Origin: Pristiophorus japonicus
Taxonomy: Eukaryota
NCBI RefSeq assembly: GCF_044704955.1
Contig: NC_091995.1
Coordinates: forward strand, 52,886,001-52,950,000
DNA: 64,000 bases
Direction of reading: 5' to 3'
Part shown: positions 31,268-33,558 of the stretch, piece after piece
Position numbering within the stretch: the stretch's first letter is position 1
Layout: every line of letters begins with the position of its first letter
Made by a program: the position numbers and the translations under genes
The notes under the pieces: generated by a model
The model's database searches: none
What the model was told of the DNA's origin: nothing
The model's input: the letters and a program-made list of their open reading frames with translations, nothing else

Positions 31268-32099
31268 AAGACCATAATAAGGGGCTCTATTCAGTATTTG
31301 GGCCACGCTACATTACCAGATATTATGGATTTACAGTCACACTCTGGTTTGTCGGGATTGGGGGGGTCACTAATGGAGTGGCCTTTGGTACTGAACACGA
31401 GGAAAGTATCAGATTAAAATCATGTCAAGCACTTTATACTAAAATAATATTACTCGATGGAGTTATACACCCATCCTCCAGTCACTTAGTCTGTACACAG
31501 CTTTGTTAGTTATTACAGATGGCACTGAACTGGATTAAATCATTTGTTTTATTGACATGCAGTTATAGCTGATAAAAGTTTATACAGTTTCAAAGCAAAT
31601 CACTGGATAAAGTCAAGTTGACTAATGGAATATAGAAACACTTGTTACAACCTTATATAAAATGCAATTAAATTCAAATGCTGTGGAACAGAATTCAAGT
31701 ATCTATTAAAATTCCAAACTATGGCAATCAGAATTTCAGAATAAAAATTTAACAGTAATGGTTTAAGATAATTGTAAAATTCGGCAAACAGGTTAACATT
31801 GCCAGGAATCACATTATCCAATAATTGAGCACAAGCATAAATTGTAATCTGTTATTTAATTATTTGAAGAAAGCATGTGAAACAATAAAATGACAACACA
31901 TAACTCTCAGACCAGCGACTACAAATGTTAATGTAATGTTTAGCCTCTCTGTATTACAGCATTAGAAGCCTGTTCCATTTACTACATGCTTCTGAAGTCA
32001 GTTACTGATTTCCTTTTGATAAACAGAGAAAATACTGTTTCACGTTTTGGATTGAGATCCCAAGTCAAAAACAGAGGTTCACCCTATTGTTTCTATTTA

Positions 32100-32885
32100 T
32101 AGATCCCGACGGGCCTGTGAGTATTTACATTTTATTATTTGGGATTTTCAGCATTATTTCTTTGTATCCAAGAGCTCCTGAGCAGTTATTCCTCCTCCTG
32201 GTATTATGGTATCCGTTCAGCCCTGAGCTCCGGTGATATTCAGCACTGTGCTGTGTGTACTTCCTCTGCGTACAGTCACACAGGACGCCACAGAAGGTAC
32301 ACTGCTCCCCACAGCCACTTAACATTGTGTACAATTCCCTGGATGGATCTGTGGGAAGAACAGTGATTTTCCCAGCAATATCCTTTCCCCAATCTCTAAC
32401 CCTTTCTGTCAGATCATTTGTACTGATAAAACTTCCAATTTCTTGATTAAAGTTCTGCGGGTTAATCTTTTCAGACTGGAAAGAAACAGTTCCCACCTTC
32501 TCCTGTGGAATCTGTCTGTCATCGCCCAATTTCTCTTTCAACACCCAAATAATACCGGTCACTGAATTCTCATTATTTGGAGGTGTTGTATCCTGAACAG
32601 CTTCCCTCACCCGCCTGATAAACCCGTGCAGAATATCCAGTGCGAGGCAGCACAGCAGAGGAGCTTGTTCTTAAAGGCAATCTTTTTCAGGATGACACGG
32701 TGTGGTTTATATATCGGTAATACTCAGCAAAACTCTCTCTCTCCTTCAAATGTAGCATCAGAGCCACCTGGAAATATTTCCGGGAATCTCCCACCTTTGC
32801 AGTGATATCTCATGTGCTGCACAATTTCTGATCCCAATTTTACATCAACAGCCTTTCCTCTTGCTGCTTTGAGCGACACTGTTCC
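32100..32885 (-). pseudogene. Decayed C-terminal domain of a very large inducible GTPase (VLIG/GVIN1)/URGCP-like gene
   Basis: Motifs LPTDPSRELYTMLSGCGEQCTFCGVLC...HSAEYHRSSGLNGY, LKAA..KAVDVKLGSEIVQHMR and RKYFQVALMLHLKERESFAEYYRYIN resemble the VLIG/URGCP C-terminus. Frameshifts and stops are present; no GTPase domain is seen. Confidence 0.75.
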
Positions 32886-32889
32886 TTCA

Positions 32890-32985
32890 GTTTTTGTCAA
32901 ATTTTTTGTCATAACACTCATGTGAAATGCTTTGGGATGTTTTACTATGTTAAAGGCGCTATATAAATAGAAGTTGTTGTTGTTT
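32890..32985 (+). mobile_element. L2 3' tail insertion
   Basis: tgtgaaatgctttgggatg...aaatagaagttgttgttg. Confidence 0.8.
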
Positions 32986-33508
32986 GAAACCCTGCAAGGA
33001 CACATTTTCCGATTTTATATTTGAGAATGGCCTCCCTTTGATAAAATTTTCAATGTTTTCCGAACTGGCTTTGCCTTGTGAACAAATCTTGTCAGCCTCA
33101 TGTGTTACAATTAACAACCTCGCAATTGTCGACAATTCCTCCAAACTCTCGGGGCCCTGGCAAGTCTTTGTTCATGGGTTATTTCCAGGGTGTAGTTTAA
33201 TATGGTTTGCAGGGTCTCAGTGAACTCTGCGCTGTTTCTTGTTCCTCGTAGTCAGTTAAGAGTTCTGTGATATCATTGCCTGGAGTAGGTTTTACTGTAT
33301 TTGCATCAGTAGCGTTGTTGCAGGAATTGAAGTGTCTGTCTGTACTGAACTCTGTGCTGGTGCAGTTGTGGTTTTGTGAGCTCCCGCTGGGTCACGTGGA
33401 CTGTGACCTCCGACTGGGTCACGTGGACTTGCTCCGGGCTGTGACCCGCTCCCAAATGGCTCTGTCTGGAGCTGCGAATCAGATTTAATCAGCTCCAGTT
33501 CCTCATTA

Positions 33509-33558
33509 TTATCCGTGGATTCCGGGTGATGGAGATTGAGCTCGATCTCCAGAAATGG
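33509..33558 (-). CDS. MHC class I-like gene, predicted terminal coding exon (AISGDRAQSPSPGIHG*)
   Basis: Acceptor ttttcattggtttccccacag; phase 1; 113-bp intron from the previous exon; TAA at 33511-33509. Confidence 0.55.

Follow-up and report, generated by a model that had tools for sequence, protein, structure and literature searches.

How did part of an innate-immunity GTPase gene come to form the 3′ end of an MHC class I gene in a shark? The window analysed here is the whole stretch of 64,000 nucleotides from the sawshark Pristiophorus japonicus (assembly GCF_044704955.1, contig NC_091995.1, positions 52,886,001 to 52,950,000), and it carries on its minus strand a class I gene whose last exon runs into sequence of the VLIG/GVIN/URGCP family. 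A first-pass annotation, made from the letters alone, had asked whether this is the relic of an “MHC-GTPase-domain fusion.” The class I-VLIG link stands, is old and is shared with other sharks, whereas the fusion itself comes down to one gene model (P0125), which may be a predictor's merge. We consider it probable that the last exon, a VLIG exon cut by two large deletions, was taken over through splicing from a VLIG gene nearby, at an early stage of shark evolution. As a rule, MHC class I molecules have short tails; here a whole class Ib sublineage of sharks apparently took its tail and its 3′ end from an innate-immunity GTPase gene of the same cluster.

All four upstream class I exons in the window (Table 1) lie on the minus strand, are in phase 1, have GT/AG ends and are 98.9-100% like P0209, a protein with the UniRef name Pristiophorus japonicus. 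The leader and alpha-1 lie outside the window, and alpha-1 is known from the model P0209 alone; with it, the class I heavy-chain architecture is present (alpha1-alpha2 platform, C1-set alpha3 and transmembrane (TM) segment). By the usual peptide-anchor numbering, five of nine anchors of the Triakis class I protein P0250 (Y7, Y59, R84, Y159, W167) are replaced, while T143, K146, W147 and Y171 are retained; both alpha-2 cysteines are also replaced, so that the alpha-2 disulfide is lost. Because these anchors and the disulfide are missing, the gene is classed from its predicted protein as nonclassical, outside classical class Ia (UAA). The 66-nt cytoplasmic exon is found solely in class I models with a VLIG-derived tail, and homologues of its peptide occur in the tails of Carcharodon, Cetorhinus, Mustelus, Scyliorhinus, Chiloscyllium and Stegostoma. 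The idea that this exon is itself recoded VLIG sequence is unsupported (716 of 1336 tiles score as high). In the Pristiophorus isoform P0419, the TM exon is skipped and alpha-3 is joined to the 66-nt exon; as modelled, such a class Ib chain would be secreted. Much of the 14-kb intron that follows the TM exon consists of a 37-bp tandem array of 166 copies (36612-42776) and an 83-bp array of 11 copies (47097-48028).

Table 1. Exons of the class I gene and parts of its VLIG-derived last exon, in window positions.
Feature	Position	Strand	Details
Class I alpha-2 exon	60963..61238	-	276 nt, phase 1; PF00129 E 1.8e-12; 98.9% to P0209
Class I alpha-3 exon	56036..56314	-	279 nt; C1-set E 2.3e-15; 100% to P0209
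Transmembrane (TM) exon	48057..48170	-	114 nt, phase-1 donor; 100% to P0209 across 38 residues
45-nt VLIG GTPase-domain remnant (P0001 940-954)	33812..33856	-	in intron, 75 nt ahead of 66-nt exon; 11/15 identical
66-nt cytoplasmic exon	33672..33737	-	100% to P0209; donor used in 3/3 runs
GG at inferred in-frame acceptor site of relatives	33570..33571	-	tails start V-S-A-Q-P / A-Q-P in register with 33570
Translated part of last exon	33509..33558	-	16 out-of-frame codons and stop TAA 33511-33509
VLIG N-terminal segment (P0001 57-150)	33251..33570	-	56/93 identical to P0001; E 8e-19
VLIG middle piece (P0001 464-573)	32852..33248	-	55-61% identity, E 1.6e-17; interrupted by repeat
Short high-copy repeat inside relic	32890..32985	-	3 more copies in window; depth spike in runs
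VLIG C-terminal piece (P0001 1386-1629)	32179..32855	-	70-83% identity, E 2e-82; three frames; Cys/His motif
AT-rich 3′ UTR-like stretch	31530..32178	-	AATAAA at 32136-32131 and 31553-31548

Our main reference for the VLIG family, which we define as in PMC8286824, was P0001, a Heterodontus GVIN1-like protein of 1725 aa. Starting at the 5′ end of the exon, the stretch from 33570 to 32179 corresponds to the coding exon of a VLIG/GVIN gene and is collinear with VLIG; three blocks of P0001 map on the window in order (Table 1), and the relic keeps 423 of 1669 VLIG residues in eight pieces with changing frames (tblastn and our own profile). The strongest signal comes from a 181-codon ORF (32670-32125), for which a search over 269 candidates returned 12 GVIN1/URGCP-like proteins from sharks (E 8.8e-74 and 76% identity for the best) and which matches a profile built from 21 VLIG proteins (E 1.7e-61); local Pfam profiles gave no match on this ORF or on the alternative frame behind the class I stop. 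The VLIG/URGCP motifs named in the first-pass annotation are thus genuine and hold in an HMM search; counted from the end of the alternative frame, the C-terminal homology starts after ~440 bp and the GCGEQC motif lies at ~980 bp. That reading overlooked that the alternative frame (the VLIG N-terminus) and 33248-32852 are VLIG as well.

Within the relic, the N-terminal segment has a 27-nt tandem duplication (33375-33429) and one frameshift near 33319. Deletion 1, ahead of the middle piece, removed ~313 codons and shifts the frame; deletion 2, ahead of the C-terminal piece, removed ~812 codons. The C-terminal piece ends at residue 1629, with the final ~96 residues absent, and alters three of 42 otherwise invariant columns, two of them within the Cys/His motif (Pro to Thr, His to Tyr). 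A remnant of the last VLIG codons near 32180-32090 is unsupported (874 of 2544 tiles score as high), and translation of the Cys/His ORF on its own was rejected in view of its late first Met and damaged motif. The repeat that interrupts the relic is presumably a retroposon 3′ tail. Downstream, GC falls from 0.45 in the relic to 0.31 in 32178-31530; the AT-rich stretch and the AATAAA predicted at its far end are both present, together with a second AATAAA (Table 1).

The GTPase core is absent, as had been noted: P0001 residues 574-1385 fall in deletion 2, and the URGCP_GTPase domain spans residues 561-963. The locus lacks the one long open coding exon that marks VLIG/GVIN/URGCP genes, and a G domain with P-loop and DxxG motif is represented only by a 45-nt scrap upstream. 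This remnant is the best of 2400 window tiles of the same size (67.4 vs 35.2 for the next) and is out of order with the main relic, which hints at a second, almost erased VLIG copy.

The C-terminal piece of the relic shows 76% identity against 78-82% among intact orthologues, and its middle piece 57% against 65-69%. The relic is thus only slightly more diverged than intact genes, which counts against an old capture: a long period of neutral decay might have left it less alike, and the explanation then needs gene conversion or slow rates in sharks. Conversion from intact VLIG copies is plausible, since 83 of 92 residues of the Heterodontus tail are identical to a conspecific VLIG.

Transcript evidence comes from three runs of one study, none recorded as RNA, in which 0.56-0.66 of words were present. 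Contigs of all three join 33672 to 33558 across a GT..AG intron, and the runs therefore behave as spliced RNA. The stop expected at 33509 is borne out by this splice: the acceptor used, in phase 1 at 33559/33558, lies 11 nt further on than an in-frame one would, and the ORF then closes at the TAA listed in Table 1. The predicted product is a class Ib chain of 365 residues with a 41-residue tail and without GTPase function. The alternative frame beyond the stop is open, as had been described, for ~72 codons to 33294-33292. Between 33600 and 33540, all four AG dinucleotides are out of frame, and the site where relatives would splice reads GG; judged against protein models of the relatives, the short tail here thus probably goes back to an in-frame acceptor that was lost. 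P0155, another Pristiophorus model, carries the same frameshifted tail, so that the shifted acceptor is common to at least two models.

The sequence is matched by contigs over 33558-32956 and over 32983-32081, with 0-5 other letters. A single mRNA across the repeat near 32960 is likely, but no record bridges it with 31 letters on both sides. In record 8 of run X1, 458 letters beyond the stretch fit the 66-nt, TM and alpha-3 exons (459) by length alone. Short contigs with 90-95% likeness to the window lie over 31371-32110, several of them rich in other letters; these probably represent transcribed paralogues that share the 3′ end. The intron at 33745-34230 is uncovered in X1 and X2 and has some cover in X3, and was set aside as evidence. 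An mRNA with its stop codon in the last exon escapes exon-junction decay, and the class I mRNA here should do so because its stop lies there.

We then turn to whether VLIG-derived tails occur in other sharks. Searching with the class I portion of P0125 returned 119 proteins; all those with a name are from sharks and none from rays or chimaeras, three lack a name, and five are distant class I at ~35%. Most end in a short tail. For thirteen tails from nine species, likeness to the VLIG N-terminus reaches E ≤ 1e-8 with at least one of three references, four more match it across 9-11 residues only, and the Cetorhinus models P0413, P0414 and P0416 add a tenth species (E 6e-10). The adjacency is thus found in relatives, as gene models of ten other shark species in which the class I tail continues in frame into the same VLIG N-terminus, corresponding to the N-terminal segment of the window. 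The tails open with V-S-A-Q-P or A-Q-P, and a homologue of the 66-nt exon often precedes them; they are acidic and Ser/Thr/Pro-rich and range from 15 to ~110 residues across species. The Q-S-L-L ending of the long tails was considered as a selected sorting motif and set aside, as it is the +1 reading of a VLIG stretch. The tail of P0144 gave no usable match in the Atlas, and two scans of metagenome contigs returned no shark copies of the exon start or of the C-terminal piece.

The junction left by deletion 1 can be recognized in several of these tails. Residues after the junction are identical to the window at 12 of 17 positions in Heterodontus, 9 of 17 in Hemiscyllium, 8 of 14 in Scyliorhinus canicula and 7 of 17 in Chiloscyllium, against just 1-2 of 17 in intact VLIGs, and only 1-4 of ~127,400 window positions score as high as these matches; S. 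torazame P0417 matches poorly (4/14). Because tails of four other genera share this junction, the capture is old, as far as protein models can date it. Those genera are galeomorphs and the sawshark is a squalomorph, lineages that split roughly 250 million years ago. The VLIG N-terminal segment is also present in a distant VLIG paralogue clade (P0009, E 6e-13), and for that reason the direction of transfer is read as VLIG to class I. VLIG and class I models are recorded with a contig of equal length in all seven species for which both have one listed.

We also placed the genes in a tree built on alpha1-alpha2 with 59 rows; of the 72 planned ones, 13 had been left out, including the VLIG-tail rows P0194 and P0197. 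Sixteen of 18 VLIG-tail rows form one clade with support 99/96, and a Heptranchias row with an ordinary tail sits inside it. The window gene's alpha1-alpha2 is sister to this clade and not within it. The Pristiophorus models P0155, P0209 and P0421 have an identical TM exon and 93-100% alike alpha-3 domains, with alpha1-alpha2 from two different clades; two sawshark rows fall in two other clades although alpha-3, TM and tail are shared, which suggests that 5′ and 3′ halves of class I genes have been reshuffled in the sawshark.

These observations can be arranged as a stepwise history. A VLIG gene in a class Ib cluster would have offered a phase-1 acceptor in frame with the class I TM exons, and a VLIG copy would thus have been captured as the last class I exon. 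The exon preserved in the window begins at the VLIG 5′ end and follows VLIG order without the GTPase core, and in gene models of the ten species a phase-1 TM or small exon is predicted to splice in frame onto its start, so that 15 to ~110 VLIG residues would be translated as cytoplasmic tail. Deletion 1, to judge by the shared junction, probably occurred a single time, in a common ancestor of the horn, bamboo and cat sharks and the sawshark; this deletion would have cut the ORF after ~95 VLIG residues and, through its frame shift, left all later VLIG sequence as 3′ UTR ever since. In the sawshark, the in-frame acceptor would then have been lost and the AG 11 nt further on used, with a stop after 16 codons; the splice itself is seen in the contigs, and its cause is the likely acceptor loss. 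The captured exon may by now mainly supply an acceptor, a stop and a poly(A) signal, and the VLIG-derived tail would be weakly constrained and probably unstructured, perhaps tuning trafficking yet dispensable. On present sequences the tail is under weak constraint, because tails end at anything from 15 to ~110 residues across species and 16 foreign codons have taken its place here. If this history is right, the exon start and the deletion junction make a shared derived orthology marker for shark class Ib genes, and the case shows new receptor tails arising by exon capture.

Other histories can be set beside this one. In one, the sawshark has a VLIG pseudogene downstream of its class I gene that is read through as UTR, an adjacency without history. 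Tandem VLIG and class I genes that share a chromosome make a chance adjacency easy, and another VLIG scrap lies in the intron; nevertheless, in-frame VLIG tails in ten other species, a small exon and a deletion junction common to relatives, and the grouping of their alpha1-alpha2 domains in one clade make this very improbable. From the first-pass suggestion that the class I gene captured a VLIG pseudogene as its 3′ UTR, we retain that the rest of the relic is most likely 3′ UTR, but the capture is not specific to one species. The alternative given with it was an ancestral receptor whose long cytoplasmic tail ended in a VLIG-derived Cys/His domain and has since been cut short here. Relatives do have such a tail, but it consists of the N-terminal segment and not of the Cys/His domain. 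That the tail ended in the Cys/His domain alone is hardly credible, even though the C-terminal piece retains its 181-codon ORF with 76% identity: both in the window and in four other genera, deletion 1 shifts the frame, the path from the tail to the Cys/His piece is broken by six further frame changes or gaps, the motif differs at two invariant residues, and the first Met of the ORF stands only ~60 codons from its end. Moreover, no class I model extends past the junction region among the 119 hits and the listed cluster members. Because deletion 1 shifts the frame ahead of any folded part, the later VLIG sequence would be untranslated and the Cys/His domain no part of the receptors.

A bolder reading, which is compatible with the capture of a VLIG exon, is that a full class I-TM-VLIG receptor is real in some living sharks and that the window locus is its decayed relic. 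Sharks would then have, or have had, an MHC class I-like receptor with a class Ib ectodomain on the cell surface and, as its cytoplasmic part, a whole interferon-type giant GTPase of 1670 residues. We regard this as unlikely, though far from negligible. It draws on P0125 (XP_060706692.1, Hemiscyllium, 1932 aa), which combines MHC_I and C1-set domains and a TM segment with URGCP and a URGCP_GTPase whose P-loop and DTEG motifs are intact, and has at its junction the same phase-1 donor and V-S-A-Q-P exon start as the tails. It also draws on P0001 (Heterodontus, two accessions), in which a signal-like peptide and a TM segment stand in frame ahead of the same exon, and on the varied N-terminal modules that other VLIGs carry by accession, which we take to be CARD, PYD, RING, FN3 and IgV. 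Against this, P0125 is the one protein with class I domains among 124 stored P-loop VLIG proteins, has neither the leader nor one half of alpha-1, and in its class I part shows 88-89% likeness to genes whose tail is of the ordinary short kind. Merged neighbours are common enough: nine of 190 fetched class I models exceed 560 residues and look like such merges, three of them in Hemiscyllium, and in P0421 the sawshark TM exon is joined to an unrelated ORF. The Chiloscyllium punctatum orthologues P0005, P0124, P0127 and P0128 (each with at least 3-4 accessions) have no class I part and begin at the Met of the exon itself, and no long fusion appears among the best 150 representatives or among the 120 matches listed. 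The long class I cluster members P0397, P0406, P0425, P0446, P0459, P0138, P0139, P0141 and P0421 contain no VLIG core. P0125 is named only GVIN1-like in its record and falls in the Atlas into VLIG clusters only, under 0.8. At the window locus no continuous ORF leads from class I into a VLIG G domain; the stop at 33509 intervenes, and the G domain is deleted.

In its most specific form, which we hold equally doubtful, the receptor would be intact in bamboo and epaulette sharks (XP_060706692.1), a membrane-anchored VLIG would exist in horn sharks (XP_067865890.1), and a class Ib sublineage conserved across sharks would be its truncated descendant. If XP_060706692.1 were real, it would be an MHC-fold receptor with an enzyme as its cytoplasmic domain, in which the sensing of a ligand, or targeting to a compartment, by the MHC fold would be tied to an antimicrobial GTPase that acts cell-autonomously. 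Membrane-anchored VLIGs may exist. In P0001, residues 1-56 comprise a signal-like peptide and a TM segment unlike that of class I, and residues 1-90 of the turtle VLIG model P0021 hold two repeated hydrophobic segments at the N-terminus. In another turtle model, P0120, butyrophilin-like IgV and IgC domains are joined to URGCP and GTPase domains, as a fusion or a merged model.

Returning to the capture of a VLIG exon, we compared the locus with known systems. It is directly homologous to VLIG/GVIN/URGCP genes (PF25496, PF25683; C-terminal PF26772), with 76% identity to Heterodontus GVIN1-like in the C-terminal piece, the same segment order, and an exon start as in P0001 and P0125. It differs in that three quarters of the coding sequence, including the G domain, are lost, and in being frameshifted, repeat-inserted and the last exon of another gene. 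Among the functions described in this family, human GVIN1 coats cytosolic Burkholderia thailandensis (bioRxiv 10.1101/2025.03.24.645074). The class I gene resembles, by description, the UEA class Ib lineage of sharks in the available passages of PMC10751288 and PMC12562908: a large multicopy class Ib family, with shark names only among our hits, ~32% identity to classical Triakis class I and lost peptide anchors. Those passages do not mention a VLIG-derived tail, and the 14 rows labelled ‘very large GTPase’ in the PMC10751288 supplement all come from reedfish, with none from a shark. The flanking markers of the Ib cluster (brd2/b2m, hsd17b8/rxrb) were not found in the 64-kb window.

TRIMCyp is a chimeric gene that arose by exon capture. 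As there, an immune gene lying upstream acquires a new C-terminus by in-frame splicing onto an immune exon of foreign origin; unlike TRIMCyp, the captured part here is a neighbour's giant genomic exon and not a retrocopy, and what was kept is a low-complexity N-terminal segment with a 3′ end and not a folded domain. Exon capture is known in kind, and the class I-VLIG link appears new: searches of the literature outside subscription journals listed no paper on it. Elsewhere in the window, three decayed gag-pol copies (9800-13980, 22365-26480 and 51300-54230) and many further fragments are present, which we take, from their ORF content and by eye, to be LTR retrotransposons and LINEs, respectively.
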